DNA of 64,000 nucleotides. It comes from an uncultured Hormoscilla sp. (lineage in GTDB: Bacteria; Cyanobacteriota; Cyanobacteriia; Cyanobacteriales; Desertifilaceae). The position numbers and the translations under genes were made by a program. The notes under the pieces were generated by a model. That model worked only from the letters and a program-made list of their open reading frames with translations, was not told the origin of the DNA and made no database searches. This document shows, in pieces, positions 27,284-54,539 of the stretch. The number at the start of each line of letters is the position of its first letter. The first letter of the stretch is position 1. Location: the NCBI GenBank assembly GCA_963921275.4, contig OZ001293.3:5216001-5280000 (forward strand). Reading direction: 5' to 3'.

Positions 27284-28117
<834 letters not shown>

Positions 28118-30150: not shown

Positions 30151-30197
30151 GTGCGATTCGTTCCGGTATAAACCATAAGGTGAAATCCGGGCTGTGT
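30151..30197 (+). ncRNA. group II intron 5' remnant
   Basis: GTGCGATTCGTTCCGGTATAAACCATAAGGTGAAATCCGGG resembles the start of the 31956 and 52738 introns. Confidence 0.6.
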
Positions 30198-30267
30198 CAT
30201 TGACAATACTCCGGACAAAATTAGGAGGCTATGGCCCCGTAGGCAAGCAGGTTCTGGTAGTTCCTTC

Positions 30268-30360
30268 GATGTCTCCTGGTGCTGCCGAAACGTAGGAGCG
30301 CGGTTGAGCACTACCCACGTTTCGGCAGCGCGCTAAAAGCACAGCTGGTGGGGAGACATC
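30268..30360 (-). repeat. two nested mini-hairpin elements (44-bp family)
   Basis: outer arms CGATGTCTCC/GGAGACATC, inner arms GCTGCCGAAACGT/ACGTTTCGGCAGC; both loops carry the reverse complement of GTGC..(TA)GCGC. Confidence 0.65.
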
Positions 30361-30401
30361 TTTGTGAGATTTAATCTTTCCTTGGCTCATACAAAGAAAT
30401 A

Positions 30402-31580
30402 AGTAGTCAGACAAAATTAATTACATAGTTTTCCCCAAATTCTTTGAGAATTTTTTCAACAGATGTAACTAAGGTTTTCCAGCAAGAATAAGCATCGATT
30501 TCAAGCCACGAGTATTTAATAAACTGCCATAAGATTTCAATTAAATTCAAATGAGGGGAATAAGTGGGTAGTCTAAAGAGTGTAATATTGCGTTCCTTCC
30601 ATTCTTCAATCTTATCTTGAATAGCATCACTGGTATGGAAAGAGGCTTGGTCTGCTACAATTACTGTTGGCTTTTCCATTTTGGCGGGGAAAAACGCATC
30701 AATACAAGCGATAACTACATCTGAATTAATACTTTGAGTAGATACATAAGCTTCTAAATGATTGTGTCTATTCATAATTCCTAATACATTTAATCGGCGA
30801 CTACGACGACTAGTAACTTCTATATATTCTCCAATGTTTTGCCATCCATAAGGCACACAAGGAATTAAAGAAAACCCACTTTCATCTAAATAATACAAGT
30901 TGATTTCCCCCAAATCGTCTAACCGTTTCAGTTCAACAAGAGTTGCTTTTTTTTCCTCATACTCTTGAGCTGGCGGGCTGACAGCTACCCCTTTACGCAT
31001 CCGATGCCAACTCATATTCATTGTTTTCAAGATTCTCTGAACAGTTTTAACACTTGTTTCAATTCCCCATTCTTCTTTGATTTTAGCCACCACTTTTTTT
31101 AATTGCCTCGGTTCTTCTTCAGTCCAGGCTTTAATTTTTTCTTTTTGTTCGATACTAAAGGTTTGCTTACGACCTCTTCCCGACTTATTATCTAGTCCTA
31201 CCATTCCCTCTGAATCCCAATTTTCAATCCAATTGTAGATAGTTCTGTAACTAACATCAAAGATTTTCATAAGTTCTTTAACTTTTTTATGTTCTTGATT
31301 GAGCAAAAGTAAACAATGTGCTCTTTGACGAACTTGATGATGGCGACTTTGACGATAAATTCGTAAGAGCAATTTTGCAGAAAGCTCATTTATTTCGCGC
31401 ATTAAAATCATTCTTAATTCCGACTAAATCCCAGTTAGATTATGTCAAATATTACCAGCAGGGGATGAGCGTGAAAACCGACTCCCCGTTAGTTTGACAA
31501 AAATATGCTACATGTACGAGTACCTATATCTAGTATAACAAGTTTTGCCGACTTGGTGCAATTAATTTTGTCCAACTACT
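30402..31580 (-). mobile_element. IS630-family element with intact 334-aa transposase (30407-31411)
   Basis: HTH plus YLDESGF, DQASFH and LPTYSPHLNLIE motifs; IRs AGTAGT..GACAAAATTAATT flanked by TA. Confidence 0.92.
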
Positions 31581-31697
31581 TAAATAAGTTCATGCATCAT
31601 GCAGGGTACATCTCAGTTAGGCGACGAGTAATTATACTTAGTGCAAGTATCCCTCAAAACGGTACATAATTTAGGCACTGTTGACCACCCTTGACCC

Positions 31698-31955
31698 ATG
31701 AACTCCCAAAAGCAGGCTGAACTCCAGCAACATCTTGACGCGATTGCCGCGATTCTCTACCAGGAAGCCGACCCCACTGAACTCACCACCCTTGAAGGCA
31801 TTGAGAAAAACGTTCGTGCGCTTGCCCAAGAACACGTCTGGCCTCAACTAGGAATTTTTTTATCAACCGTACAAGATCTCGCGATGCTGACTGGGGTGAG
31901 CATCTCCCACAGTACGCTCCAACGCTTTGTTCAACGAGAGGACTGGTCTGAGGTA
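31698..31955 (+). mobile_element. ISKra4-like transposase fragment interrupted by an intron
   Basis: QQHLDAIAAILYQEADPTELTTLEGIEK...GIFLS; TGVSISHSTLQR. Confidence 0.7.
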
Positions 31956-32495
31956 GTGCGATTCGTTCCGGCATAAGCCAGTAGGTGAAAGTCGGGTCTG
32001 GCTCTATCAGCCAGATAACTCTGGTTATCATGGGGTTTAAATTCCCCTTCCCCAGGTACGGGGGTCGAGGGTACTACCGGTCGGAGGTGCTGCGGAGTCA
32101 CATCACCGTGGTGTGGAGCGAGGACTTAAATGTAGGATAACTGGCAGCCTAAGCCGGTGACGCCGCTAGGAAAGATGTTAATGGTTAGAACAAGCGAACC
32201 TATGTAAACCTCGTTAACCAGAACCAGCGGAAGAAGGCTTATGCGCTTGCCCAAAAAGGGAAATGGTAGTTAGTATTAGCTCTTGCCTCTGGCTAATAAC
32301 GTACTCAAAGAACTCTCGGGGTATAGTAGGAACCTAAAAGCATCGCGAAATGATACCAGGGAACGGAGTAACCTCTCGTGAGCTGTCCCCATTTGGACAA
32401 GTTAGATGTAAAGCGCAAGCCACGAAGAGGAAGGATGTCCTAAGAAGCTAACGCCCGGGGTAATGCTTGTGGATATGCAGACGTAGGACGGATAT
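31956..32495 (+). ncRNA. 3'-truncated ORF-less group II intron
   Basis: near-identical to 52738-53277; lacks D4-D6. Confidence 0.85.
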
Positions 32496-32512
32496 AAAAC
32501 TCAACTCCGTGG

Positions 32513-32568
32513 CTGTGTCCCTTAACATGCATGAGACGATAGTATCTCATGCATGTTAAGGGACACAG
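32513..32568. repeat. 56-bp near-perfect hairpin element
   Basis: ctgtgtcccttaacatgcatgaga ... tctcatgcatgttaagggacacag. Confidence 0.8.
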
Positions 32569-32724
32569 GTTGCTTGCCCTTGACTGTTGTCTTGCTGTTT
32601 TGGCTTTCCGGACCGGCCGTGAAAGAGATATCTGCTCCTTGCTCTTGTCCCAGGGTCCATGGCTGCGCCAGCCATGGCTCGCCACCCATGGCTGCGATAC
32701 GCGCTAAAGCGATTGTCAATTCTC

Positions 32725-32912
32725 ATGAGCAAAAGCCGAAAGACAAATAGAGACCATGGTAAAAAGACCCAACGCCCAATGGTTGAAGATGAGGTGGTGG
32801 CAGAGCAGCTCGAAGCCTTACTAACTCCCGCCATCATCTCTCAAGAAGCCTATTATCGCCAAATGGGTTTGAGAGATAGAATACTCAACTTACCATTAAT
32901 GGTTGCAGCTGT
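32725..32912 (+). mobile_element. IS4-family transposase N-terminal fragment
   Basis: KTNRDHGKK...QLEALLTPAI...YYRQMGLRDRILNLPLMVAAVL, truncated. Confidence 0.75.
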
Positions 32913-32924
32913 ACTTGCTAGGGA

Positions 32925-33780
<856 letters not shown>

Positions 33781-34179
33781 AGTTAACTTCACAATGCATA
33801 GAGAAAGTGAAAACACTTGGGTCATGCTGGAAAATAAAAGCAGTACTGTCCTCGATGCACGTCTAAGTCTACAATTAAAATTTGGCGAACAAGCCCTATT
33901 TTTTACATAACCTGGGGGGCGATCGCCAGATGTTTAAAAATGCAGAAACCAGAATCATAGCTAGGAAAAGCATGATGAGTACCGCTAGCAGTATTGCAGG
34001 CCAAACTGTGATGCAAGGCTAATTGAGCTGTGAGAATCGTCCCTGGGCCTTGACATCGACTGTACTTTCATAGTAAGGTTGCACAATTACGGGATGATTT
34101 AACCAGATACAGGTATGAAATCATAACGTAAATAGTATAAAAGTAACTTAATTGAAAGCTTTAACATTTATTCGGATTT

Positions 34180-34780
34180 TGAGTAACACAATGTTTTTCT
34201 TTTTAAGCGAGCGAGATAATGTCTTAATCGACAGTTTTCACCTTCAACACGAGTCATGTATGTTTTACTCACTATCTGGTCAATATCTTCAATAAACTTT
34301 GGATATACTGACCAACCATCCGTCACCTAAAAAAATGATGCCTTTTATGATTTCTCACAATGGCTGTTTCTGCCGAACAGTCTCCTAAAGTCCATGCTAT
34401 AATTCCAGGTTGAAAATAATTCACAACTGTCCATAACCACTTTTTATTCTTTTTTTACCCACATAAGTATGTAACTCGTCAATCTCTGAAACCAAGGCGT
34501 ATATCATAGTTTTCGGGGAGAAAAGGCAAAGGTTTAGCTACTTGTTTTATCCAATTTATAACAGTATTATGCTTGACATCTGTGATTCTTTCAATTCCTC
34601 GCCGTTCCCATTAAGGTACATTTTTCGACAATTTTCTTTCACCTCTTTCGGATAACCTCGTGGAGAATAATATTCAATAAACTGGCGACCACAATTTTTA
34701 CAAAGGAAATTTTGTTTACCGCGCCGATGACCATTTTTATTGATTTGTTCAGAACCACATTGTGGACATTTCATATTCAA
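34180..34780 (-). mobile_element. IS1-family transposase pseudogene
   Basis: CPQCGS..INKNG..RGKQNFLCKNCGRQF zinc finger; downstream EIDELHTYVGKK and SKTYMTRVEGEN fragments. Confidence 0.85.
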
Positions 34781-35398
34781 CTCCTTGAAATCATATATCA
34801 GCCTTAATATCCATTATACCACTGATTGGTACTACTGGGTAAAATTAGCTTATACTGATTATAAATTTATGATAAGCTATTGCAGATTATCATAATCTGC
34901 AATAGCTTATCATCCCGTGATTGTGCAACGCCAGCTCGTACATATGCTGGGGCATGGACTAGTAGTCCACACCGCAAATATATCTGATAATATAGCTAGC
35001 CGAGGCAATAACTTGCGTCAGGATTGGCTGAAACCCTTGCCGGGCCATAATTTCAGTGGTGCTCCCTACCGCAATAAGAGCACAAATGTTGGCTAGTGTG
35101 TTATAATCACAGCTAAGTTACAAAAACACAAAACGAAAGAACATGGCCCGACCGACGAAACCGCTCAACCTCATGCCAGAACACTCCCGAACTGCTCTCA
35201 GGGATTGCCCGCAGTCGTGAAACGCCGCACAGGTGGTGCGGACACAGATTGTCCTGAAAGCGGCCGCCGGCGATAATAACAAAACGATTAGCCAAGACGA
35301 CATGTGGGAAGATCCTGTCGGTCTTTGGCGGAAGAGGTGGATAGAGGGTGCCCATGAGGACCGAAAAATTCGCGGGTAAGTCTAAAGAATTGCGGGTA

Positions 35399-35483
35399 GA
35401 TGTTTCCCCTTTTGTGCGACTACGATGTTTCCCCTTTTGTGCGATTAGCGCTCCCGGGAAACATCGAGCTCTCGGGAAACATC
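35399..35483 (+). repeat. two nested 44-bp mini-hairpin elements inside an IS630 gene
   Basis: absent from the homologous IS copy near 60130-60150; inner copy 35423-35466. Confidence 0.85.
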
Positions 35484-36348
35484 GTAGCGGATTGGCAAGC
35501 TAAAGGCAGACAAACCGCGCCCTGGAAGCCCTGGCATATTCAGGGCCGAGCAAGTGTGCCAAATCATTGCTACCGCTTGTGAAAAGCCGCCGGAATACCT
35601 GAGTCATTGGACGCGAAAAGAGTTGGTACACTCAACAGGATTGGCGAGGTATAGCAGAGGAGATAACACCTTCCACCGTCGGTCGTTTTTTAACATCAGG
35701 CAGACCTTAAGCCGCACCGTAGCAAATATTGGCAAAATCTAGAAGTCGAAAACGAAGCAGCTTTTCGGCCAAGAGGTAAGACTTGTGTGCAAGCTCTATC
35801 ACCAAGCCTCCTCGTTACACGCTCAAGGTGTACATGTGGTCAGTACAGATGAAAAGACCGGGATTCAAGCTAGAGAGCGTATTTATCCAACTCGGACAAT
35901 GAAGCCGGGCAAACCTGAAGCCGTAGAATTTGAATATCAATGGCACGGCACTCAAGCATTGATAGCTAATGGAAGAAGAGGCAACGGGCACTCGTTATCA
36001 GTTCCTCAGTAGGACTTACCCGCACCGAAGAAGACTTTGCAGCGCATATCCACTGTGGAAACTGACCCCCAGGGTCAACGGATATTTATTTGCGACCAAT
36101 TGAATACCCACAAAAAAGAAAGTCTGGTTAATCTTGTGCCTGAGTTGAGCGGCATTGAAGAGGCATTAGGTTTGAAGAGGAAGTCGGGTATTCTCCAAAG
36201 CATGGCTTCCCGTGCAGATTTTTGGCAAAATCGCTAGCCTAGCATCCGCGCAAGTGTATACTCCTAAACATTGCTCATAGCTCAATCAGGTGGAAAGAAG
36301 GTTTGGGATTTTGACTCATCGCTTGCGAGAGACGCAGCAACCTCACGC

Positions 36349-36392
36349 CGATGTCTCCCCCTTTGTGCGAGTAGCGCTCCCAGGAGACATCG
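36349..36392 (+). repeat. 44-bp mini-hairpin element inside an IS630 gene
   Basis: CGATGTCTCC...GTGCGAGTAGCGCT...GGAGACATCG; absent from the homologous position near 56610. Confidence 0.88.
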
Positions 36393-36501
36393 AAGGTTGA
36401 AGAACTCATGCATTCGTATTCTCGCATTCATTGATTTCTTTAATGATACCTTAGCTAAACTGTTTCGCTGGACTTATATCGGTAAGCCGTTGCTCATCTA
36501 A

Positions 36502-37091
36502 GTTATCGGGGCGTTGCACTTCTTCATCAGTAGCTGGCGTAGTTTTAACAGTTGGAGTGCCATCCATTTCTGTAATTAGAAGCTCTACTCCATCTATGAT
36601 TTCTTCTACTGTTTTTTGAGATATTTTAACCCTAGGTTTTTGGGTAATTGCTTGTGCTGAACTAACTGCAACAGTTATACCATAATGTTCTTGTAGCTTT
36701 TCTGCTTCCAAATGATACATCTGTAATTGCTCGTTGTAATGCTAAAGAATAACCCCGACAGCCGATGATGAAAAAGGTCGAATCACCTTTCCCGTTTTTA
36801 CGTAAAAATTTGCTCTATCACTTGTTCCAAACACTCTAGGCCAATATAGTTGTTTTTCTCTATGCATCGACTGAGATTGTTCACAGGTCTTAGCTTTTTT
36901 TTCTCTTGAGTCTTGCCCCAATCTTCAAGAGCCTCTTTTCCCATCTTTGGGAACTAGATGATAAGTTTTGACCGCCACAAGTATCATCGATTATTTCAAC
37001 AATATCCAACATGAAAAACCCTAAATGGGGATGTTCTTGTAATCGCTCTAACCCTGCTGCTAATCAATTGTTTCTTTTCTTCAGGGTTCAT
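36502..37091 (-). mobile_element. degraded transposase (ISKra4/UPF0236-like)
   Basis: KLQEHYGITVAVSSAQAITQK...LLITEMDG fragments with many stops. Confidence 0.55.
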
Positions 37092-37694
37092 CAATTCCGT
37101 CATTATCTGCTCAAGGGCTAAAGGAAAAACAACTGTGCAATGAGGCTAGTCTAAGTAAAAGTACTTTTTGGTACCGCGACAGACTGAGTTGCTGAAAGCC
37201 TGATTCTTGCCTTGAATCTAAGTCTGGTCAAAGTAGCAACTCTGACTTTTCAAACAACCTCTAAATCCTAAGTGGTTACATAGGCCAGAGATGAAACCCT
37301 TACCCAGTCAGGGTTTTATCAAGGGTTGCACAAGTACGCTCCGGCTTGCGAGGGGAAATTATATAACATAATGGTAAACTAACGAGAGGACATTTTTTTA
37401 GTGACACCCATTTGAATGTGGATTTCTCCCTCACCAGATGGTCCCCATCACAGACGGTTGAATTCCGGTTTCACCCAATGACATGAAAACTGTCCGGACT
37501 ATTGTGGAAAAAAAATCCAGTTTTTATTATCCATTTGATTTGTCCCATTCACCAGGAGGTCATCACGGGATGAATTTATCTGTCACCGGTCTTTCCGTGG
37601 CGTCCTGCTGGTCCGAGACTGACTTGACTCCCTGATATTTCCCTCACTCTGTCAGGCACCGGTTGATAAGGCCAAACTGTCACTGACCATTACA

Positions 37695-37927
37695 CCCCCT
37701 CCGGCGTGTCCCAGACAGTGCGATTACGATGTCTCCCCTTTTGTGCGACTAGCGCGAGGCGTCTCCTCTTTTGTGCGAATACGATGTCTCCGGAGTAGTG
37801 CTTCTAGCGCTCTCCGAAGACATCGAGATCCCGGGAGACGCCTCGCCCCGGGAGACATCGAGCGTCCGAGACACGCCGCGGGCAAGAGCGCAACATAATC
37901 AGGGTGGTAAACTAGGCGCAAGTTCAT
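37695..37927 (-). pseudogene. N-terminal stub of a histone deacetylase-family gene, interrupted
   Basis: MNLRLVYHPDYVALLP..PEG resembles the start of cyanobacterial HDAC-family proteins; split by the nested hairpins, remainder absent. Confidence 0.6.
37702..37878 (+). repeat. four-level nest of mini-hairpin elements
   Basis: arms CGGCGTGTC/GACACGCCG > CGATGTCTCCC/GGGAGACATCG > GCGAGGCGTCTCC/GGAGACGCCTCGC > CGATGTCT/AGACATCG, each left arm followed by GTGC. Confidence 0.88.
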
Positions 37928-37966
37928 CAGGTATAATTGTCAGCAGAATCAGCAGAATTTCTGAAA

Positions 37967-38281
37967 ATGTTTGACTTTCTCAATCCCATCTTAGGTTGTC
38001 ATCCCGATCACATCAAAGCCAACGTAGAAATATACACTTGGGCTAGCTGTCCCTTCTGCATCCGAGCCAAATTATTGCTCTGGTGGAAGGGAGTCAAGTA
38101 CCTTGAATATAAGATAGATGGCGATGCCGAAGCCAGAGACCGGATGGCAGACCGTGCCAACGGTGGCCGGACGGTGCCGCAGATTTTCATTAATAATCAG
38201 CATGTTGGCGGGTGTAATGAACTCTATCAGTTAGACGGAAAAGGTCAACTAGATCCCCTGCTAGCTAAGCTAGCCAGCTAA
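37967..38281 (+). CDS. grxC: glutaredoxin 3
   Basis: CPFC active site; TVPQIFIN..HVGGC. Confidence 0.93.
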   Translation: MFDFLNPILGCHPDHIKANVEIYTWASCPFCIRAKLLLWWKGVKYLEYKIDGDAEARDRMADRANGGRTVPQIFINNQHVGGCNELYQLDGKGQLDPLLAKLAS

Positions 38282-38292
38282 AATTAGTAGGT

Positions 38293-38841
38293 ATGTTAAT
38301 TGCAGATCCAACCTATCAGGGACATCGGCGATGGATGAATCGGGCCCTAGAACTGGCCCAGTCAGCAGGTGAAGCAGGAGAAGTGCCAGTAGGTGCGGTG
38401 ATTGTGGACAGCGAAGGGCAGGCGATCGCCTCAGCATCGAACCGCAAAGAGAGGGACTTCGATCCCACGGCCCACGCGGAAATCATCGCCATTCGGGCCG
38501 CAGGGCAAGCTTTACAAAACTGGCACCTGAACCACTGCACCCTATATGTCACCTTAGAACCCTGTCCCATGTGTGCCGGGGCCATAGTGCAAGCCCGCCT
38601 TGGTCTTCTAGTTTATGGAGTTGATGACCCCAAGACAGGTGCCATTCGTACCGTTGTCAATATTCCCGATAGCGCTTGTTCTAATCATAGATTGCAGGTA
38701 ATAGCGGGAGTAATGTCCTCCCAATGTCGCCAGCAACTGCAAACTTGGTTTGCCCAACGACGGGGCAGGAAAAAGTCGGTACTGGTACAAGATGCCGATC
38801 GTGACAGTACAAGAACTGTCATTCAGATAGAAGAAAAATAG
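38293..38841 (+). CDS. tadA: tRNA adenosine(34) deaminase
   Basis: GEVPVGAV, DPTAHAE and TLEPCPMCAGA motifs. Confidence 0.96.
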   Translation: MLIADPTYQGHRRWMNRALELAQSAGEAGEVPVGAVIVDSEGQAIASASNRKERDFDPTAHAEIIAIRAAGQALQNWHLNHCTLYVTLEPCPMCAGAIVQARLGLLVYGVDDPKTGAIRTVVNIPDSACSNHRLQVIAGVMSSQCRQQLQTWFAQRRGRKKSVLVQDADRDSTRTVIQIEEK

Positions 38842-38916
38842 CAGTAGCAAATTTAGGCTAAACGGGTAGTAGTTGGGAACCCCGATCTGCTTGGGCTCGA
38901 CTTTTCTCAACCAGCC

Positions 38917-39594
38917 ATGAAAACATCTAAACCTGCGGTTACTTCTGATATTTCCCCTTGGTTAACAGTTTTAGTCTATCCTCTGGGGCGTCATGTTGTC
39001 TTGCCATTCTACTTTGGTTCCATTGAGGTGGTGGGACGAGAGCATCTACCTACCGAGGACTGTCCGATCGTCCTCGCCCCCACCCATCGTTCTCGCTGGG
39101 ATTCCCTGATCGTACCCTATGCCGCCGGATTTGATATCACTGGACGCCACTTGCGGTTTATGGTCTCCGCAAATGAAATGGAAGGGCTGCAAGGTTGGTT
39201 CATAAAACGCCTGGGGGGGTTCCCTGTCGATCCTGAACAGCCTGGCATTTCCAGCCTCCGTCATGGAGTAGACCTGCTCAAGGCTGGAGAAACTTTGGTG
39301 ATTTTTCCCCAGGGTAATATCTTTCGCGACAACCAGGTGCGATCGCTCAAACCAGGTTTAGCCCGCCTTGCCCTGCAAGCCGCATCCAGTCACACTAATC
39401 AGGACATTAAAATTGTTCCAATTAACATAGCTTACGCCCAGCCTATTCCTTACCGGGACTGCGAGGTCAAAATTAACATTGGTTCTCCCCTGTCCGTGGC
39501 TGCTTACCGCGCAGGAACAAGCAAACAACAAGCCAAAAAATTGACTGCAGATCTCGAAGCTGCCCTCCAAAGTCTTGCTGTTGTTAGTTGTTAG
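38917..39594 (+). CDS. lysophospholipid acyltransferase (PlsC-like)
   Basis: HRSRWD (HX4D) and IFPQG motifs. Confidence 0.9.
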   Translation: MKTSKPAVTSDISPWLTVLVYPLGRHVVLPFYFGSIEVVGREHLPTEDCPIVLAPTHRSRWDSLIVPYAAGFDITGRHLRFMVSANEMEGLQGWFIKRLGGFPVDPEQPGISSLRHGVDLLKAGETLVIFPQGNIFRDNQVRSLKPGLARLALQAASSHTNQDIKIVPINIAYAQPIPYRDCEVKINIGSPLSVAAYRAGTSKQQAKKLTADLEAALQSLAVVSC

Positions 39595-39629
39595 TTGTTA
39601 GTTGTCAGTTGTTAGTTGTCAGTTGTTAG
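39581..39629 (+). repeat. heptamer tandem repeat (TTGTYAG)7, STRR-type
   Basis: ttgttag/ttgtcag x7 overlapping the stop codon. Confidence 0.9.
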
Positions 39630-42651: not shown

Positions 42652-42756
42652 AACTGGTAGTTTAATGTGCGATTCGTTCCGGCGTAACTGGACACCAGGT
42701 TCAGGATAGCTGGGTGGGGCAACCCACAACTCAGACGTTATGAGGGTTAGATTCCC

Positions 42757-44670: not shown

Positions 44671-45516
44671 TTCCCTCATGTACAGGGGTGACACCGGCCC
44701 ACCGTTCCGGAAAAATCGGTGCTGTGGAGCAACATCACCATGGTGCTGAGCGAGGGCAAATGTAGGATAGCTTCCAGCCCTGAGGAGGTAACGCCGCTAG
44801 GAAAGATGTCCATGGTTAGAACAGGCAAATCCTTGTAAGGGTCGTTACCCAGAACCGGTGAAATAAGGCTGATACACCGGGCTCAAAAGTGTAAGCAGTT
44901 AGGACTAATGCTGTTGAATCATTAGTTTTGTACACAAACAACTGCCGGACTATAAAGGAGACCTAAAGACATCGTGAAATGACGTTTGGGAACGAAGTAA
45001 CCCCCGTGGCTCTGTCCTTATGGACCAGCGAGATGTGAAGCGCATGACCACGCTCTTAAGGATGGCCTAAGAAGCAAATGCCTGGGGTAATGCCTAGGAT
45101 ATGCAGACGTAGGTCGGTGATAGTAGGAAATCTCAGGAGAAAGTAGTTCTTATATGTGTTAAGCCAGTTCGCAAGAACCAGGAAGCAATGTGGATTAAAA
45201 TCCTAACCGGGTAAAAACATGGAAGCCCCTCAGATATGGGCAATGTTAGTAAAGAGTGGACCCAGGGTTTATCCTGTTATCCTCCATGAAGCTTCCGGAG
45301 TTAGGTACTCAATTAGTCTAGTTGACTGACCAACAAGGAACAAAATTTCATGAGACAAGGGACAACGGGAGTAATCCCTAGTAATCCTACCCATGACAAG
45401 GGCCTATTACCCAGTAGCCGTGTGCGATGAAAGTCGCTCTTCAGGTTCCGAATGGGAGGATTGGGAAGCGATTCCCAGCTCGACCCCTAACATGGATGCA
45501 TCCCAATCTAGCGGCT

Positions 45517-45559
45517 CGGAGTCTCCGGGAGCGCTACTCGCACTTCTCGGGGGACTCCG
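45517..45559 (-). repeat. 43-bp mini-hairpin element
   Basis: reverse complement CGGAGTCCCC..GTGCGAGTAGCGCT..GAGACTCCG. Confidence 0.8.
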
Positions 45560-45667
45560 GCGAAGCATTCGGATATTAAATTTGTCGATTTATCCCATAA
45601 GCGATCCGCCCGAATGCTTCGCCCCTACAGGTTAATTTGTATAAATGGGATGCTCCCGTTTATTATT

Positions 45668-45880
45668 TTAGGCAGCAGGTCGATCGTATAACACTATTAG
45701 CTGTTCAGCCCGGAGTGCCAAACTGGCGTAGGTGCAGCCATCATTGTCGCTGAATTCCACTTCAAAAACATTTGGCGCTAAAATTTCGACCACTGTACCA
45801 ACTTGCCCTCGGCGCAAATCCCTATCGGGCAAATTATCAGTTAGCACTACGACATCAAGCATCTGGATGTTACTATTCAT
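45668..45880 (-). CDS. DUF4926 family protein
   Basis: LDVVVLT...LRRGQVGTVVEIL...FEVEFSDNDG. Confidence 0.85.
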   Translation of the reverse strand: MNSNIQMLDVVVLTDNLPDRDLRRGQVGTVVEILAPNVFEVEFSDNDGCTYASLALRAEQLIVLYDRPAA

Positions 45881-45892
45881 TTAATCTCCTCC

Positions 45893-46228
45893 TTATTTCA
45901 GAACATAACAACTGGTTAGTCGCAGGAAGTCTTCTCCTGGGCGAATGATCCAACTGCTACGAAATCTTGCCTATCCAGCTTGTCTGCTCATTTCCAAGTC
46001 TAACCTGTAGCGTTGACCATATTCATCCCGTTCAGTAGGAGTGGCATCGCCAGTACGGGCAGCTGCTAACAACTCCTCTCGCAATTCTTTAGCATTTTCA
46101 GCAGTCAGTCCTAGTATAACAGCAAAGACACGGGCTTTGTGCTGACCGCGTCCGTGATTGGGGTTCAAACAGTAGTCGCGAAGTTTCTCAATATCTACAA
46201 CTGCACGTTTAAAGTTTGGTAGTTTCAT
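45893..46228 (-). pseudogene. DUF6883 family protein with an in-frame TAG
   Basis: KLRDYCLNPNHGRGQHKARVF...; reading continues past TAG (45971-45973) as ARFRSSWIIRPGEDFLRLTSCYVLK. Confidence 0.75.
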
Positions 46229-46320
46229 CCGTCACTCCCAGCATTGCTTCTCAAGCTTGACCTATCTGTACTATGATTATAAAGTATTTTTCCTGTTTTT
46301 GCGTTTTGCTAAAAAAAACC

Positions 46321-46803
46321 GTGAAAACTATATCGCAACTTGACGCGCCGAGCGTTCCCGATCGCAGCTTAGGCGGCTTTGACTTGAGAACTCCTATTCG
46401 CGACCTCAGTGATTTATTATTCGGCTTAGGTTCGTGGACAGAAGGGTTCTGTGAATTAGCTTCACCATTTGAAGCCCGGTATCGCCTGGGAAAAGGTGAA
46501 ATTGAACTTGCTGTTGACGTGAGAAATGGCAAGGTGTTTAAGATCGCAGCTTACTCGGGATACAAAGGAAAGCTATTCGACAAAATTGTTTTGGGGATGA
46601 GAGTGAAAGTAGCAATGGAGTATGAACCCAGGTTATTTTACAGTGAAGCAGAAGCAGCAATTCTCTGTCAGGATTTCACGGGTCTGACTCTGGACGTTCC
46701 TGAAATCCGCCACTGGAATCAATCCCAGATATGACGATTTCGGCAATTTCCGTACATATCGCAGAACTTTACACGCCGCAAGGCATGTCTGGCGAGTGGT
46801 AAC
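46321..46803 (+). pseudogene. hypothetical protein, probably frameshifted near 46708
   Basis: protein-like ORF to 46734 with a plausible continuation PPLESIPDMTISAISVH...GEW in another frame. Confidence 0.4.
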
Positions 46804-46856
46804 CATAGTCTGTCACCATCTTGACCCACAAAAAGGGCTGACATTTCCCCATTGAC

Positions 46857-48064
46857 TCACTCCTCTGTCGATAGCCAGTCTTCTAACTTGAGTCCCGGAA
46901 CCCGCAGCATGTCGGAATCGTGAGAAACTAGAGTCAAGTCACGGGCGATCGCCGTTGCCGCGATTAAAATATCTGTATCCTCTAGCAGAGTTCCCTTACC
47001 TCTTAAATCTGCATGAATTAATGCCGCGCTTTCGATTATCTCGATTTCATCTAACAATGCCACGGTAACCGCTTCGCAAAAGCTATTAAAATCAGACAGT
47101 TTCCTGGTAGCATTGGCATACAACAAGCCTCTCTTGGTCTCATAATAGCTGATAATGTGCGATGAGTTCTAGCCTAACGTAGTCAAACGCGGAACGCTAG
47201 CCTAGGAAACTAGTAACTCTGGTATTCATGGGGGTTAAATTCCCTCTCCCCAAGTACGGGGGTAACACCGGTCCTCGGTACTGCGGGGTAACATCACCGT
47301 GGTGCTAAGCGAGAACTTAAATGTAGGATAGCTGGTAGCCTAAACCGGTAACTCCGCGCTCTCAGATGTCCAAGGTTAGAACAAGCAAACCTATGAGAGC
47401 CTCGTAACTATTAATCGGCGAAATAAGGCTTTATGCGCCGGAGACAAAAGTCACTGTAGTTAGTGTTAGTTGTATTATCTGGCTAACAACGTACTCAAAT
47501 AACTACCGGGGTGTAGTAGGAACCTAAAGGCATCGCGCTCCGGAGACCAGGGAACGAAGTAACCCCTCGTGGGCTGTCCAACTGGACCAGTCAGATGTGA
47601 AGCGTATGCCACGAGAGGGAGCCCAAGCCTGCCCTCAAGAAGCTAATGCCTGGGCGGTGTCTGGAGCCTGCCGAGTCCTTCAGGACAAGAGCATGCGGAA
47701 GACGCCGAGTAATGCCCGGGATACGCCGACGTGCGGTGAGGGTGGGTGATAGTAGGAAGTCTCAGGTAGAAAGTAAATCTGAAAATGTTATGAACCCTTC
47801 ACTATAGGTGATGAGGTATAGATGTAAAGGAGCAAAATCGCATGGGATTTGTCGCGAGTGCCGATATGCCTAAGGACAAGCCCCAGCGGTGAAAGTCGCT
47901 CTTTAGGTTCCGAACGGGAGGGTCGGAGGGTGACTTCCGGCTCGACCCCTAATACTTATATACAGCTTTTCTCCCCAAAACTTCGCCTCCTCTATTTTCT
48001 CTCTAATTTTTTCATCATTCTTCAAATGAGCCGCGATAATCTTCGTATCTAGCAGATAACTCAT
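46857..48064 (-). pseudogene. vapC: PIN-domain (VapC-like) toxin split by an antisense group II intron
   Basis: 47954-48064 (MSYLLDT...KLYIS) joins in frame to 46857-47156 (IISYYETKRG...DILIAATAIARDLTLVSHD) giving 136 aa. Confidence 0.9.
47157..47953 (+). ncRNA. ORF-less group II intron (797 nt), D5 damaged
   Basis: GTGCGATGAGTTC ... CTCGACCCCTAAT; EBS1 ATTATC matches upstream GATAAT. Confidence 0.9.
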
Positions 48065-48072
48065 TGCCAATT

Positions 48073-48375
48073 TTACCTTCCTTCTACTGCTGCGTCGAAC
48101 CTTTCGATTTGCTCTGGAGTTAGGTCTAAAAGCATCCCTGCCGTCGCCTCGATCGCCATTACACCCTTGATCCTTTCTGCCAGTCCCTCTTCATCCAGAG
48201 AAATAATATTTTCTGGAGAAACCTTATCTAACAGTTTAGAAAATATTTGCATCAGATCGTCTAGTTTAAGTTTCTCTTGATAGAGAGCATTGCTTTGCAT
48301 AAACTTATCGACCAAATTCGCTATCCGAATCATTGCTGTATCTTTTGCCGCTCCAACTTGAGTTACTTGAGTCAT
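48073..48375 (-). CDS. putative antitoxin upstream of vapC
   Basis: 100-aa ORF ending 8 nt before the vapC ATG; C-terminus LLDLTPEQIERFDAAVEGR. Confidence 0.65.
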   Translation of the reverse strand: MTQVTQVGAAKDTAMIRIANLVDKFMQSNALYQEKLKLDDLMQIFSKLLDKVSPENIISLDEEGLAERIKGVMAIEATAGMLLDLTPEQIERFDAAVEGR

Positions 48376-48409
48376 ATGTCCTCCTTGTCGTCTAGTTGAC
48401 ACTAAAAAT

Positions 48410-49441
48410 AGACATCTCCAAAATATAAATTTCTGCTATAATAAGATTTGAAAATTTAATTTTGTGACGAGTATTACCTGGACATATTTGCAAGCCAAGC
48501 CTAAAGAAGCAAAACGGCTCATCGGTATCAGCTATGAAAACTTAATACAACTTATTGCAATTGCTGTTGGATAAAAATCATAAAGAAAAGGTGGAAGAAC
48601 ACAAAACTAGATTGATACGTCGAGGGGCGAAACCTAAATTATTAGTAGAAGAGCAAATAATTTTAAATTTGATGTGTCAAGGATTAACATTCCAAGTATT
48701 AGGTATACTTTTTGGGTAAAAGCTAATGATATTTTTAATTATTGGCAAGATCTTTTCCGCTTTGCCGTTTACTTGAACAAAAAAAATGGAGAAGATGAAG
48801 AATATTTATCCAAACACAGAATATGAGTTGATAGTCGATGAGCAAGCCATACCAAGACCTAAAGACTATGAAGAGCAGAAAAAGTTTTACTCAGGTAAGA
48901 AGAAATACTTTGAAAAATTAATTAATTGTTTTACCTGGTAGCGTGCAGATCTTGTCGATGTTGTATCTGGAGAAAGAGGCCCAGCAAGCGATATAAATCT
49001 TGCGAGCGTCGTTTTCGATCCAGATCAAATTTTTGCAGGGGATAAAGCCTATATTGGAGAACCTCAAATAAAAACAACCGAAAAAACAGGAATTAACAGC
49101 TAAACAAAAAGAATAAAATAGAGATTTTTCTTCCCGTTTTCGTTGAACACGCCATAAGATTGGTTTTTCCGGGTTGCCAGCGAGCGATTTCGGTTAAATA
49201 TTGATAAATATGAATCAGTAATTTCGACAAAAGTTGGGTTGGTTAGATTGCGCGAATTTTAGAAGTATTAGAATCTGTTGATAGCTCTGAAAAACTTGAG
49301 ATTAACCAGTACCACCTTTGGATCTCTTTATTAACAGGAAATCTATCAAACCCCGATTCTGCCGTTTGAGTAACATATGTGATCATGGGAGGTAGAGCTT
49401 AAAACCCAGAGCTGACAAGGGTTTTATTTTTGGAGATGTCT
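48410..49441 (+). mobile_element. IS5-family (ISL2-like) element, heavily degraded
   Basis: IRs AGACATCTCCAAAA/TTTTGGAGATGTCT; EQKKFYSGKKK and FAGDKAYIG fragments. Confidence 0.8.
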
Positions 49442-49600
49442 AATTATCTAGTCCCGTTTTTAATTATCGCCTGTAATAGGGGGGCGATCTCTTTACCCTT
49501 CCACTTGTTCTGGGCCACTTTCTTTCGGGTGTGGTCAAAACCCGTTGATCAAGCATGGGATCTCCCGATCGCCGGATTCTCCCAAACCCTCGGATCCCCC

Positions 49601-49993
49601 CTAACCCCCCTTAAAAAGGATCGTCTCTGTGGGGATGTCGATGCTAACCTGGAATATGGCTTTCCCCACCTTGATGATATCGCCAGCTTTTAAGTCATGT
49701 TCGGGAAAAGTTATCCCTGCAGCTTCTTCTGGAGTTTGATCCTTTTGGCGCTGTCCAATTTTTTCCCCATTCAGGTAAGTGCCGTTTTTGCTGCCAAAGT
49801 CCCGCACTCGGATGTTGGGAGGGTTGATGTCTAGCAAACAGTGATAGCGGGAGATGCTGCGATGCTGTTCGTCATCGGGTATTTTAATCTGGCAGTCTTG
49901 GGCCCGACCGATGATGCAGGTGGTGCGTTCTGCAAAGATATATTCGAGTCCTTGCAGGTCTCCTTCCGTGATGGTGAGAGTGATTTTTGACAT
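49601..49993 (-). pseudogene. FHA-domain N-terminus, probably of a truncated signalling protein
   Basis: IIGRAQDC...SISRYHC...DFGSKNGTYLNG; ORF stops shortly after the FHA domain, close to an IS. Confidence 0.75.
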
Positions 49994-50504
49994 ATTTATC
50001 CCTTCGCAATTCACAATTCGCCATAGGGCTACACTGGGTAAACCCCATTCGTCAATTATAACTGTAAGGATCCTGTTTATACGGCAGGAAGGGAGCTGAA
50101 AAGGGAGCATCCCAGTTTTACACTAAGTAATTGTACTTAGTGTACGCCATTAAGATAAGCACAGCGTAAGCGAAGCATTTGGTTAACTGTCCAACTGTAT
50201 TAAGTAAATGCTTCTGACTACCATTTTCTCTGCTTTCAAAGTCTTGAAGATGCTCTTGTGTCTGCATAGAGGAGTTTTGATAATTCTTTGAGATGGTATT
50301 TAAGTTTTTGATTTTCTTCTGGGGTCATGTAGCCTGCTCTACCGTGGATATTTTTTCCATATTACCAGAATAACTTTTTTCTCGCTTAGCTTGCCGCTGC
50401 GGGAGTTGTGCAACTGGTCGATGAGAGCAAAGCCTTACCCTGCAAGGACTCAGCGCCGCCATCTCCCAACGGAAGGAAATTTGCACAAATGTATAGGACA
50501 CAAA

Positions 50505-50900
50505 TCACGAGTATTTATACTCATTGCCAAAGTGGGATGCTCTCGCTGAAAATCTTGAATACTTGACTTCACCACTGGATGGGGGCAGTTCTGTTATGGC
50601 GATCGTGCCCGTATTTACATCCTCGAAATAGATCTCGTTACCCATGCGTCCCTGGACGTGGAATGGGCCATGAAAAAACTTATATTCGGGAATGTCGATC
50701 AGGAGTAGGTCACGGATAATCACTTCTGAAGCGAATATTTGCTTACAAATCTCGGGGATGATGGCCTCTAGTAATGGACTCTGGCTCCGATCGCCGTATT
50801 CTATAAACTCGGGGTGATCGGCGAAGTGGTCCATGAAAAATTTCCAGATGTTGGATAAGTCTTTTTCCTTGACAAGTATTTGCTTTAGTTCGTCGTTCAA
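50505..50900 (-). CDS. hypothetical protein
   Basis: 131-aa ORF (IWKFFMDHFADHPEF...FFHGPF). Confidence 0.65.
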   Translation of the reverse strand: MNDELKQILVKEKDLSNIWKFFMDHFADHPEFIEYGDRSQSPLLEAIIPEICKQIFASEVIIRDLLLIDIPEYKFFHGPFHVQGRMGNEIYFEDVNTGTIAITELPPSSGEVKYSRFSARASHFGNEYKYS

Positions 50901-51112
50901 TCTTCATCTTCATAGGGTTTCCGAGGGAGAGAATCTTACTGCACTACTATACTCGATATCTGCGATCGACTGACGGTCCTGGATGATGACATCCCTTATT
51001 TTGGGCGCGATCGGGCCCCACGCAGTCTGCTGGTGCGATCGCGCCCAGATGACCTACTGCTATTATACCTGACTGGAGGAAGAGCCTCACGAGCCCATTC
51101 CCTGTCAGAGAC

Positions 51113-52716
51113 CTTGTCATTATCCACATTTTTTCAAGTAATCTTTGTGGCAAGCTCTACACCTATGCACAAGTCTTGGAACCTCCGCCAGCCCCGCCGT
51201 CTGCCAGCCAGGGTTACCATCTCCAGAACGACCAATGAAACCACCTTTCGCGAGCGATACTTTTCCAAAATTCTGCGGTTGTCAAATTATCATCGGGTAA
51301 ATTGAGATGCGCTACTAACACTTTTAAGCACTTGATGGGAATCAACTTAGAAGCTGGAAGTTCTGGAGTAGTACGGCGCTCGATTACGTAATTGTAACAA
51401 CCGATCCTGATACAATTGCTAAAAATCCCAGTAATGCTAATAACCCTGATGCTGTCTCTAGCTGCCGTTTCTCTATGGCACAACCAGTCTTCATGCATTT
51501 GTGATATTCGCACAATTTTCCAACTATACCAGTCTAATTGTTGTAAAGCATCCTCCGCATCTTGCACCTTCACAGTTGTAAATAAAATCCATTCTAATCC
51601 ATCATCAACTCCCGCTTCCCAACAACGAATGCACCATCCTGAGATGGTTTCTTCTTTTGAATAAGGACTGTTTAATGGTGGGTGAATGGTCAGCCCAAGC
51701 CACTTCCAACTTGACTGTACGTTGGGGTTCTCCATTACGACCACGTAACACCATCGTTTTATAAGTCATGCTCTCCAGAGTGCGAGCATAGGTTTTAAGG
51801 TTACTTTTAGTCCCCGAGGCCGTTGTCATCACTCGATGAAGACAAATTCTCACCAAGCCATGCCACCCTAAAGCTTGTGAAGGTTTAATGTCATCGAATA
51901 CATCACTCTCTATATCTCCAACACTCACCCATAACGACCCTGTTGTTAATAATGGAGTCCTACCTATTGACTCCACCATTTCCGCCCATTTGTCTCCTTC
52001 TGTACGAACATTTCCTTTTTTCGTTGGCGATAGGTTTTTTTCTCTTTTTTTGGCTCTAGACACATCCAAGTCTCCTGACCTGCTAGACCTAATATTTCTG
52101 GGTTGTCTGGTTTTGGGATAACTGCTAGACTACTATATACCATTATTCCTCTACCTTTACCATTTCCAATATATCCTATACCTTTTATGTCTTGACGCTG
52201 ACTATAATCTAATTCCGTAGTATCTTGCAGAAACAACACTACTGATGAATCACTTTCTCTAGCCCTCTCAATGGTCTTTTCCCAATGAGGTTTACTTAAC
52301 ATGAGTTACAAATGAGGTTTACTTAACATGAGTCACATCAGAAGAATTTAACAATCGATAAGCTGCTATAGCTTGACTCCATTGAGTCATTTGTTCAGGC
52401 CTACTGGCTGTTGGATTAGCTGCCATTGCCGCTCCCACTTTAATAGCTCTTTGTGTGCGACGGCTATCTCCCAAATCACAGGTTGACCATTGGGAAGTGG
52501 CCTATTTATTAATGTCTATTAACTCCTGCTGATTCATCATGTGTGATTTTTACTACAATTATTGCCTTGGGTGTGAGGAGACCGGTATACTACCGCAGTA
52601 TAACGGGGAAGTGAATCACCTATCACTGGCAGTATCAAGTTCCAGGCGATGTCCCACGTATGTGGGTGAAAACTACCCTATTTCCAGCTTAACACAAAAT
52701 GTGGGTAATGACAATG
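51113..52716 (-). mobile_element. IS4-family (IS50-like) transposase pseudogene
   Basis: IR-like ends TTGTCATTATCCACATTT/AAATGTGGGTAATGACAA; LGDSRRTQR, LQDTTELDY and LEWILFTT fragments. Confidence 0.85.
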
Positions 52717-52737
52717 CCAGAGACTGGGAACGAGGGA

Positions 52738-53663
52738 GTGCGATTCGTTCCGGCATAAGCCAGTAGGTGAAAGTCGGGTCTGGCTCTATCAGCCAGATAA
52801 CTCTGGTTATCATGGGGGTTAAATTCCCTTTCCCCAGGTACGGGGGTCGAGGGTACTACCGGTCGGAGGTGCTACGGAGCCACATCGCCGTGGTGCCTCC
52901 CGAGGACTTAAATGTAGGATAACTGGCAGCCTAAGCCGGTGACGCCGCTAGGAAAGATGCTAATGGTTAAACAAGCGAACCTATGTAAACCTCGTTAACC
53001 AGAACCAGCGGAAGAAGGCTTATGCGCTTGCCCAAAAAGGGAAATGGTAGTTAGTATTAGCTCTTGCCTCTGGCTAATAACGTACTCAAAGAACTCCCGG
53101 GGTATAGTAGGAACCTAAAAGCATCGTGAAATGATACTAAGGGAACGAAGTAACCTCTCGTGAGCTGTCCCCATTTGGACAAGTTAGATGTAAAGCGCAA
53201 GCCACGAAGAAGAAGGATGTCCTAAGAAGCTAACGCCCAGGGTAATGCCTGTGGATATGCAGACGTAGGACGGATATGGTAAGACACCCTTGGGAAAAGT
53301 AACCTTAATGTCACAGAACTAGGGAGAAATTCCGAAAGTACGAATTTTGGATTCAAATCTTAGCCAGGTAAAGTTCAGAGCCCTTACGAAAAGCGGAAAG
53401 CAGAATGGGGAAGATGTTAGTAAAGAGCGGCGAGTATGGTTTGCTGAACTATCCTCCGCGAACCTTCCGCAGCTCAGTACTTAAACGGTCCAATAGGATT
53501 GACCATAAGGGGTAAAATTTCAAAGGGTAAGGGACAACGGGGGTAACCCCCAGTAATCCTACTGATGACAACAGCTTACCAACCAGTAGCCGTGTGCGGT
53601 TCCAGTCGCTCTTCAGGTTTCGCTCTTGGAGGGTTGGGGAGTGATTCCCAGCTCGACCCCGAC
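52738..53663 (+). ncRNA. ORF-less group II intron (926 nt), D5 damaged
   Basis: GTGCGATTCGTTCC ... CTCGACCCCGAC. Confidence 0.9.
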
Positions 53664-53699
53664 CAAATCATGCTCCCTTGATAGGGAACATGATTTTTG

Positions 53700-53960
53700 A
53701 TAATCACGACTGCACTTTGCTAATTTTTGCCGATATTCTAGCCATTACTTCCTTATGAGGGATTAATTCTCCCCGGTCCGCTGCTTCAATTCCTTTCTTG
53801 ATTTCTGCGATTTGCCATGCTTCCTCTTCTAAAAACTGTCCGATCGCTTGATTGACCAGACAATCGATCTACAGATTCATTTGCTTGGCCAAGCCAAATT
53901 ATCTAGCTTTTTTTGTTTTTTCAAGTATATTCTGATCGTAAATTATGCTGAATTGCCCAT
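53700..53960 (-). pseudogene. RHH/CopG-type antitoxin remnant
   Basis: LVNQAIGQFLEEEAWQIAEIKKGIEAADRGELIPHKEV; N-terminus disrupted. Confidence 0.6.
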
Positions 53961-54177
53961 GAAATTTATCCCCTGTGCCTATTGAAAATTATCCTATCTC
54001 TCGTTGCCTGACTCTGGCAGACAACGCAATGCCAGAGGCTCTGCCTCTAGTTTTTTCCTGACTGAATATGTTATTATCAGAAAATATTCCATTCTTGTCA
54101 AAGCCCAAATCATTGGTACATTAATCTTTATCCTAGACTAGAGGCAGAACTCTCAACTCTCGGGTGCAACGATAATG

Positions 54178-54321
54178 GGGTGCATCTCACTTTTGACATT
54201 CGTAGGTTGAGTTGACGCCCTTGAAACCCAACAAGTCCAACGCCAACAACATATCTTTGTTGGGTTTCGTGCCTCAACCCAACCTACGACATTAAGATTT
54301 TTGCTTCTATGAGATGCACCC
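54178..54321. mobile_element. 144-bp MITE
   Basis: IRs GGGTGCATCTCA/TGAGATGCACCC with 8-bp TSD CGATAATG. Confidence 0.85.
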
Positions 54322-54390
54322 CGATAATGCATTTAATCTAGCCTGCGCAGGCGGGCTTTGTTTGTGTAGCCGGGCCCTTTAGGGTTCGGG

Positions 54391-54434
54391 CTGTGTCCCT
54401 CGGGTAGTGCGACTAGCGCTCCCGGGGGACACAG
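54391..54434 (+). repeat. 44-bp mini-hairpin element
   Basis: CTGTGTCCCTCGGGTAGTGCGACTAGCGCTCCCGGGGGACACAG. Confidence 0.85.
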
Positions 54435-54539
54435 AAGGCTAAGCAAATATGAGATGCGCCCTAACTCTCTGGCATAATTTCAATGCACCCAAACGGCCAA
54501 AGGATGAGGCGGGTTTTCAACTTGCGCCTACTCAACCGC

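Follow-up and report, generated by a model that had tools for sequence, protein, structure and literature searches.

A family of very small DNA hairpins, most often 44 nucleotides (nt) long, was characterized from a 64,000-nt stretch of an uncultured Hormoscilla sp. genome (GCA_963921275.4, here G000), namely G000:C1:5216001-5280000, where C1 is contig OZ001293.3. This whole stretch is called the window, and positions below are window positions unless G000:C1 is stated. The hairpins are real, genus-restricted and polymorphic, and they take their place among the very small non-autonomous hairpin elements, the new part being an insertion rule: a one-sided purine-A-T signal (R-A-T) at positions -10 to -8, which lies 8-10 bases upstream on one strand, marks the insertion sites. 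The 44-nt hairpin is likely a tiny mobile element placed by a site-reading enzyme, and it belongs to a set of non-coding hairpins of 41-56 nt, restricted to the genus, that have the outer stem and the distance to R-A-T in common. In the reading preferred here, to which we give a probability of about 0.4, the hairpin would be a non-autonomous element whose folded single strand is inserted by a trans-acting enzyme, most likely a HUH (Y1-type) nuclease-ligase.

Five simple copies occur in the window (Table 1), and each carries GTGC at positions 17-20 and TAGCGCT at positions 24-30, as a first-pass annotation of this DNA had described; they are the sole matches of the motif GTGC-NNN-TAGCGCT in the window. 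The copy at 45517-45559 is indeed on the minus strand and 43 nt long, further nests of copies within copies are present at 37702-37878 and, on the minus strand, at 30267-30362, and the half copy at 61776 is a left half for which no matching right arm was found up to the window end. In the fold, a 14-bp outer stem is followed by an unpaired T15 and then, where an open loop had been drawn, by a 5-nt loop closed by a 5-bp inner stem, one pair of which is an invariant T.G. The outer stem forms terminal inverted repeats of 11-14 bp, and the modal length is 44 nt, with sister hairpins of 41-56 nt. Against the 44 bp first proposed, the mobile unit is usually 47 nt, adding one base on the left and two, mostly AA, on the right. 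GTAG stands at positions 14-17 in 196 of 258 copies and is hence internal, not at the hairpin foot. When folded as DNA, the plus strand of the 54391 copy reaches -19.3 kcal/mol (z -6.6) and its minus strand -14.7, and the minus strand of the 36349 copy folds slightly better than the plus strand. At the Rfam gathering score, group II intron D5/D6 gave the only matches in the window and the hairpin had none; the stem motifs were also absent from the supplement sequences (as distinct from the consensus figures) of two catalogues of repetitive extragenic palindromes (REPs; PMC6006769 and PMC3733652), and a literature search found no description.

On contig C1, 309 motif matches were found, of which 194 (168 of them distinct) form 8 or more of the 10 terminal pairs, and the six small contigs contain none. 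An nhmmer profile built from these sequences gave 615 matches at E<=0.1 in G000 and 0 in the reversed genome, and the load amounts to about 600 whole or partial copies at 476 loci, or 0.3% of the DNA. The family is dispersed genome-wide and beyond chance. A 17-nt pattern matching 230 times in G000 occurs 28-107 times in each of four same-genus genomes (G001-G004), with 2 single matches in 36 others. In the genome collection, 71 of 75 loci among the matches listed carry Hormoscilla titles; four matches in other-genus genomes and one viral match were rejected as family members, the stem being missing by eye, and a metagenome scan yielded one short contig. A loop-free pattern of stem plus AA tail was found 144 times in G000, 51 in G003, 70 in G004, 48 in G002 and 2 in G001, and elsewhere at most 2 times, in 15 of the other 296 genomes, the same as the control. 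The sister-family pattern gave 0 matches in 300 other genomes of the phylum. Among the cyanobacteria searched, which are samples of genomes, the family is restricted to the genus Hormoscilla. About a quarter of the copies (66/258) lie inside long open reading frames (ORFs), and in this way the hairpins show how 15-codon steps enter genes. These copies are antisense in 52 cases and sense in 14, an antisense excess over what two in-frame TAG stops would predict (p 0.0015 versus 40% sense).

Mobility is documented by filled and empty sites. The nest at 35398-35484 is missing from the paralogue of its host insertion sequence (IS), an IS630 copy, at 60140, and the 36349 copy is missing from the IS630 paralogue at 56612, with a net gain of 45 nt and no target duplication, so that both insertions claimed in the first-pass annotation are borne out; the site of the latter copy holds nests of 136 nt and 90 nt in two other IS630 copies. 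Beyond these two cases, flanks were compared with paralogues within G000 and with 1.6 Mb of sequence from relatives. Empty homologues were found for 38 distinct elements of the 407 outermost ones, although the 38 pairs are not independent, several being paralogues of one repeat, and some flanks are just 80-85% alike. Presence is polymorphic between strains or paralogues. The net gain equals the element length +1 in 21 pairs, +0 in 6, +2 or +3 in 4 and other values in 7. No target duplication of at least 2 nt was seen by eye in the 38 pairs, one of which can be read as having 1 nt. At the modal joint, a 47-nt unit (1 nt, the hairpin and AA) stands in place of 2 target bases, the filled site reading N-hairpin-AA and the empty site N-C, and the second replaced base matches the element's first C. 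Of 14 AA-tailed pairs with a gain of +1, 11 have C at the empty-site joint and 7 have a difference at the preceding base, which becomes T six times. A second class comprises 7 clean blunt pairs, in which 44 nt were placed after a target G with no loss. Tails and joint bases in these pairs were read by eye, as were the outermost arms of the 37702-37878 nest and the non-genus matches; joints from four contig-only sequencing runs over 35000-38300 may be paralogues. The tail follows the end type, CGA ends having T..AA and CTG ends G..CA. In the AA class, the base after the tail is G in 0.68 of 121 copies and C at -3 reaches a frequency of 0.61; the empty sites are mostly C/G or C/A, the slash marking the junction.

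Such junctions could also be made by a recombinase with a 2-nt core, of the IS110/IS1111 kind or an IS607-type serine enzyme, for which the folded hairpin base would be the donor site and mismatched cores would then be repaired; we regard this as distinctly improbable. Two bases per junction act core-like, with NC of the target to the left, AA of the element to the right and mixed outcomes, and the inverted repeats start 1 nt and 2 nt inside the ends, resembling the subterminal repeats of IS1111. IS110 elements use a dinucleotide for recombination and are able to mobilise non-coding units in trans, but in ISPpu9 the same dinucleotide stands at both ends (PMC12288879), whereas the hairpin ends differ. 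IS110 was rejected as a mobiliser, the G000 copies being broken and the genus copies having unrelated ends and no association with the hairpin, and so was IS607: five G000 copies have open reading frames, as this explanation would wish, but their ends are unrelated and show no association. A double-stranded circle of 45 bp is implausible. The main IS110 family of the genus (e.g., G000:C1:1850158) occupies one position in a REP linked to a REP-associated tyrosine transposase (RAYT). An integron-like tyrosine recombinase is disfavoured, as PF00589 had 0 matches in G000, G001, G002 and G004 (genomes 93-97% complete) and 2 on one G003 contig. This result means that not even an XerC/D-like gene was matched in those four genomes, and all 14 control genomes gave a match.

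The target rule was derived from 224 strictly non-nested G000 copies, i.e., 258 outermost, de-duplicated copies minus 34 with family motifs in their flanks. A purine occupies -10 at a frequency of 0.77, A occupies -9 at 0.70 (G at 0.13) and T occupies -8 at 0.65; AT at -9/-8 is present in 104 of the 224 versus 16 on the mirror side, with about 16 expected (background 0.07). The register is sharp: in a larger set of 294, which still contained some nested copies, AT starts at -9 in 126, at -10 in 13 and at -8 in 3. The signal pre-exists in the empty sites (T at -8 in 25 of 34, AT in 13 of 34), and it holds in register for every end type. As AT is equally frequent outside long ORFs (84/192) and inside them (22/52 and 7/14), the signal is not a codon effect. 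Copies lacking GTAG still have AT in 23 of 62 cases, and GTAG is thus dispensable. Copies within REPs are often devoid of the R-A-T signal, and about 9 of the 15 copies of G001 lie within RAYT-linked REPs (by eye). Two other determinants of targeting were rejected: between loop bases 21-25 and target positions -11 to -5 there was no clear identity or complementarity (one table at p 0.001 among many tests), and hairpin-shaped targets were in modest excess (39% versus 28% below -6 kcal/mol), GC content being uncontrolled.

A signal of this kind might be thought to reflect host replication or repair with no dedicated transposase, for example if the A at -9 were a primase start and the end of a 9-10-nt primer, or a nick left by a topoisomerase or repair enzyme, were extended on a nearby hairpin by template switching. 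A purine at -9 (A 0.70, G 0.13) followed by a base other than A, on one side and about 10 nt from the junction, would resemble primase initiation; C is common at -3 in the AA class, as it is at sites of type IA topoisomerases. The searches made found no dedicated gene, and the in-place changes of arms and patches described below show that template switching is frequent. Against this, the register is too sharp for variation in primer length (126 versus 13 and 3), the rule is limited to hairpins with this stem, with REP2 and the 18-27-nt repeats not showing it in register, the family occurs in one genus though the machinery is universal, and no replication or transcription strand bias was seen outside genes, in a replication test that is weak. 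An origin in host machinery is accordingly judged unlikely.

What the inserting machinery recognises in the element is indicated by its sister families. Hairpins of 41, 54 and 56 nt have the outer-stem consensus of the 44-mer, but their interiors are unrelated and GTAG is absent from them. AT recurs at the same distance in 12 of 23 sites of the 41-mer, 17 of 26 of the 54b set and, per side, 7 of 12 of the 56-mer; the 54a set is weaker, with the signal divided between two offsets (7 and 6 of 34). In contrast, REP2 and the 18-27-nt repeats gave no R-A-T signal in the hairpin register. Since the sisters differ in the loop but retain the outer stem and obey the rule, the fixed loop motif, which had been taken as the key signal, appears to be cargo, and the base of the stem, not the loop, is likely the donor signal. 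In the asymmetric families, the fixed orientation relative to the signal suggests a single-strand step in insertion. Hundreds of insertions together give a definition of the donor (outer stem, 1-nt left base, AA tail and free interior) and of the target (R-A-T at -10 to -8 and C or G at the joint, on one strand). Other high-copy repeats of G000, e.g., at window 44702, comprise 18-27-nt units with an A-rich bulge (182, 97 and 66 copies) and 22-24-nt GC-rich units (180 copies); they look like short dispersed repeats (SDRs), insert into hairpins and genes, and follow no R-A-T rule.

Self-nesting is common, with 103 of 592 left halves lying within 44 nt of another left half on the same strand. Most entries (94/103) fall after position 25 (66) or position 30 (28), which are the best two loop positions by the target profile (1.35 and 1.71, respectively), and nests tolerate interiors from 41 to over 300 nt.

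The hairpins also change after insertion. In 25 hand-picked sequences, 11 of 19 pairs show changes on both sides, a value reached in 0 of 500 shuffles, and relative to the commonest pair 394 outer-stem cells are changed on both sides and still Watson-Crick, with 90 changed on one side. The compensatory changes seen earlier are hence confirmed as covariation; as proof of selection they fail, because both arms change jointly at one site and G.T mismatches (35) are no commoner than A.C (37). G000 and a relative both have a copy at 12 sites, where the flanks are 97.5% alike; of these copies, three differ by a whole 5-6-nt patch at positions 12-16, one by a loop triplet and one on both arms together, and three are identical. 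Shared sites such as G000:C1:5201013, 356205, 3140045, 1952698 and 2525784 exhibit the patches GGGTA, CTTTT, ATGAAT and ATGCAT and a GAG or TTT swap in the loop; these swaps leave neighbouring rare variants in place, and one loop is inverted. At one REP site of G001, copies differ in the last three base pairs, which are perfectly complementary. As both arms change together at resident sites, arm-to-arm copying after insertion is likely, and quasi-palindrome correction is a known process of that kind. The patches may come from another small repeat with the GTGC core in common. Covariation in such repeats can therefore arise in place.

These changes bear on a further explanation, retroposition in trans, in which the 3' end of nicked or nascent DNA would prime the reverse transcriptase (RT) of a group II intron, and this enzyme would jump to processed hairpin RNA or DNA over 1-2 nt of microhomology, copy it, add AA and rejoin the strand, making the hairpin a bacterial counterpart of short interspersed elements (SINEs). 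Patch swaps and loop inversion suit a template-jumping polymerase, and the invariant T.G pair and the better plus-strand fold would suit RNA. RT matches number 93 in G000, 45 in G002 and 34 in G004 versus 0-4 in eight sister-genus genomes, and G001, with 1 strong RT match, has just 2 AA-tailed CGAT-type copies, the other four having 48-144. Such RTs are reported to use microhomology of one base and to show snap-back and terminal transferase activity (bioRxiv 10.1101/2022.03.14.484287). These counts come from five genomes that are all kin and in which all mobile DNA is expanded, with G001 and G003 being fragmented assemblies. Of the 93 RT matches of G000, 50 were translated, and 43 of these form one intron cluster. 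The hairpin flanks score like random DNA on the intron-binding site 1 (IBS1) profiles of the two large intron families (correlations 0.01 and 0.25) and lack the A at -15/-14 that both families have, together with A at -9, in their 5' exons; six smaller families do not match either, and the first impression that one intron family shared the -10 to -8 signal failed on testing. The proposed link between the loop start GTGCGA and intron 5' ends dissolved as well, since none of the 442 intron 5' ends and none of the 447 3' ends falls within an element half and the target profiles differ. Moreover, a fixed signal register would still require a nuclease, the AA tail depends on the end type and so looks inherited rather than newly added, G.T and A.C mismatches in the outer stem are equal, and the retron-like RT (truncated) and a YMDD RT, both rejected as candidates, are broken and have no element nearby. 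Overall, retroposition seems rather unlikely. The intron load of G000 is itself very large, with two apparently ORF-less families of about 800 nt (153 and 81 5' ends); the window holds four intron ends at 24945-33003.

Insertion of a folded single strand by a HUH enzyme is preferred because one-sided, duplication-free, hairpin-dependent insertion is best known from such enzymes, and the register, fixed over families and end types, speaks for a single protein complex in which donor and target are held. In the sources consulted on IS200/IS605 and RAYT enzymes, the chemistry is strand-specific, single-stranded and hairpin-bound and leaves no target duplication (PMC3333891, PMC8266576). One protein would hold the hairpin base and the target signal in a single fixed geometry, and the target strand would be opened 6-8 nt past the signal. 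The element's first one or two bases might then form 1-2 pairs with the target, so accounting for the frequent change of the base preceding the shared C to the element's T, and replication would fix the insertion in one daughter. Self-nesting would follow from rule-fitting sites in the element's own loop plus some preference for hairpin DNA, and the near-perfect arms would probably be kept by arm-to-arm copying and selection for mobility. The first ten central bases, and with them the central GTAG-T-GCG stretch, equal the start of the subclass-2.7 REP consensus of another cyanobacterium (PMC6006769 supplement); the stretch may be left over from the hairpin's origin, but free REPs of this kind do not form a family in G000. 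What had been described as a very small, non-autonomous, self-nesting hairpin inserting strand-specifically and with no duplication is upheld, and the folded single-strand intermediate proposed with it is a step that we infer.

Several observations weigh against the HUH reading. The Y1 genes of G000 at C1:241795, C1:1348544 and C1:2007236-2007682 each have a repeat family of their own and are not hairpin-flanked, and the 17 Y1 loci in G001-G004 gave two single matches, no stem hairpins and no hairpin-flanked gene. Known RAYTs, as given in PMC8266576, cut C/T or C/A guided by GTAG at the hairpin foot, but the GTAG of the hairpin is internal and dispensable and its junction is mostly C/G; likewise, the tetranucleotide beside the cut and the precise joining of IS200/IS605 do not predict a signal 8-10 nt off, loss of 2 nt and replacement of a base. 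The target profile totals about 2 bits, which is weak, orientation shows no relation to local GC skew (50.4% positive, p 0.82, a weak test in G000), and the junction evidence is limited by paralogous pairs and 80-85% flanks. The target rule alone is insufficient for nesting, because position 11 scores highest (2.86) yet was used once, on a profile derived from the set of 294 that includes some nested copies; exposure of the loop or hairpin, or copying between nests, must add to it. Finally, the stereotyped 3-6-nt patch swaps at 4 of the 12 shared sites point to polymerase template switching. The hairpins might instead be the cargo of an undescribed single-strand insertion chemistry, in which an enzyme new to transposition would recognise the hairpin base together with three signal bases at a distance of one helical turn and write 45 bases, or a whole nest, with no duplication. 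We consider this possible, if on the doubtful side; if true, it would be a minimal natural 'paste' system with a free interior, just as copying by an intron RT would make the hairpin a bacterial SINE-like element.

None of the three mobilisers suggested by the first-pass annotation, HUH/RAYT, recombinase or RT, could be tied to the hairpin. Two of the G000 Y1 genes were found by Pfam and a third by tblastn, in addition to a remnant; as the Pfam search overlooked one gene, the Y1 list may be incomplete. The third, RAYT-like gene (G000:C1:2007236-2007682) is flanked by REP2, a repeat that also inserts at hairpin positions 12-16. A lead on a subclass-2.1 Y1 gene, whose genus copies have a downstream hairpin ending like the element and of which G000 keeps the remnant, was abandoned when, in 27 other-genus loci, the right-arm motif alone was found to recur with no partner arm. 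Genes of this type are present in 55 of 251 genomes across the order, often followed by a conserved non-coding stretch of 100-150 nt, beyond which a convergent GUN4-domain gene with a GC hairpin appears, by eye, to end; this may be an IS end, a small RNA or a fixed target. No autonomous IS with hairpin ends was seen: the commonest unpaired arms are internal to introns or IS, and the stem does not open any of the 60 commonest repeat boundaries. Among 80 ORFs between close copy pairs, examined by eye and not scanned against Pfam, most are housekeeping genes and no recurrent candidate emerged.

Table 1. Hairpin elements and related features of the window (window positions)
Feature	Positions	Strand	Evidence
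Two-level nest, 87 nt, in a decayed IS630 copy; outer copy opened after loop position 25	35398..35484	+	Empty paralogue at 60140; identical nest in another G000 IS630 copy
Inner simple 44-nt copy, CTTTT variant at positions 12-16	35423..35466	+	Motif, fold
Simple 44-nt copy + AA tail (36393-36394), net gain 45 nt, no target duplication	36349..36394	+	Empty paralogue at 56612 (minus)
Target signal (-10..-8) for the 36349 copy, reading AAC, a frequent R-A-T variant	36339..36341	+	Sequence and family rule
Four-level nest: degenerate outer 37702-37878, then 37727-37860, 37757-37843 and innermost simple copy 37782-37825; entries at loop positions 25, 30, 25	37702..37878	+	Outermost arms by eye
43-nt copy, one right-arm base lost	45517..45559	-	No empty homologue found
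Simple CTGTG-type copy + AA tail, within a REP of a RAYT-linked family	54391..54436	+	Two empty paralogues, net gain 45
Degenerate nest lying within a group II intron, in its 5' part	30267..30362	-	Other intron copies here empty, singly filled or nested
Left half alone	61776..61795	+	No matching right arm up to window end
Perfect 56-nt hairpin from a sister family, alike in outer stem and target rule, different in its interior	32513..32568	.	Sequence, fold (strand unassigned)

Beside the 56-nt hairpin, in an intron-rich stretch, a 54-nt sister hairpin is represented at 32624-32700 on the minus strand by its right end, together with nested small repeats. Elsewhere in the window, six successive ORFs at 7004-20265 encode Big_9/cadherin-like and RTX calcium-binding repeats and are probably one or more broken giant adhesin genes. 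Outside the window, contig C3 of G000 (31 kb, 17.6% GC) is unlike the remaining assembly and may belong to another organism.

In comparison with known systems, the hairpins resemble the SDRs of Nostoc and REPINs, and in the features tested they do not conform to REPs, MITEs (miniature transposable elements with inverted repeats), IS110 units or attC sites. With the REP/REPIN-RAYT system (PMC3116915, PMC3333891, PMC8266576 and PMC6006769) they have in common a species-level high-copy hairpin, compensatory changes, asymmetric ends with a short single-strand tail and insertion into copies, and their internal GTAG-T-GCG stretch equals the subclass-2.7 REP start. They differ from it in having no GT(A/G)G at the hairpin foot (flank logos), no doublet, no flanked RAYT and a junction other than C/T or C/A, in their distal target signal and in having 66 of 258 copies in long ORFs. 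With IS200/IS605 elements (IS608, ISDra2) they have in common strand specificity, lack of duplication, a one-sided target and a hairpin whose unpaired T is a likely recognition feature; in those elements, however, the target tetranucleotide abuts the cut and the joints are exact, whereas here the signal is 8-10 nt off, insertion usually removes 2 nt and a flanking base is exchanged, and the element consists entirely of the hairpin.

MITEs and Rickettsia palindromic elements (RPEs) are likewise non-autonomous palindromes with inverted ends, some of them in frame in genes (PMC10969869 and PMC3733652). The hairpins are shorter than the 70-300 bp given for MITEs in the latter, have no target duplication and a fixed orientation to the target, and no IS with matching ends was found. 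The non-autonomous IS110/IS1111 unit ssr9 of ISPpu9, in the account of PMC12288879, also shows no duplication, 2-nt junctions, REP targets and movement in trans, but the hairpin is much smaller, its end dinucleotides differ, and no related transposase ends were found in the genus. An integron attC site is set apart by the tyrosine recombinase result in G000, G001, G002 and G004, retron msDNA by the truncation of the sole retron-like RT with no hairpin element near it, and a unit derived from a group II intron by the finding of neither an IBS1/IBS2 match nor insertion at a GTGCGA site.

The SDR1-8 of the Nostocaceae, reportedly described by Elhai et al. in 2008, are said to be very small (21-27 nt) and to have a conserved structure, compensatory changes, nesting in their own copies and in-frame insertion; to our knowledge, they have no known mobiliser. 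The hairpins also possess a conserved structure, compensatory changes and self-nesting, but at 44-56 nt they are longer than SDRs, they occur outside the Nostocaceae and they are not in HIP1. The distal one-sided signal and the exchange of 47 nt for 2 at the junction are not known to be features of SDRs, which were compared by description. PMC5861425 states that SDR-like repeats were not found outside the Nostocaceae. The donor and target rules obtained here, which are directly assayable, bear on how repeats of less than 100 nt, such as SDRs, CGTC-type REPs and RPEs, may move.

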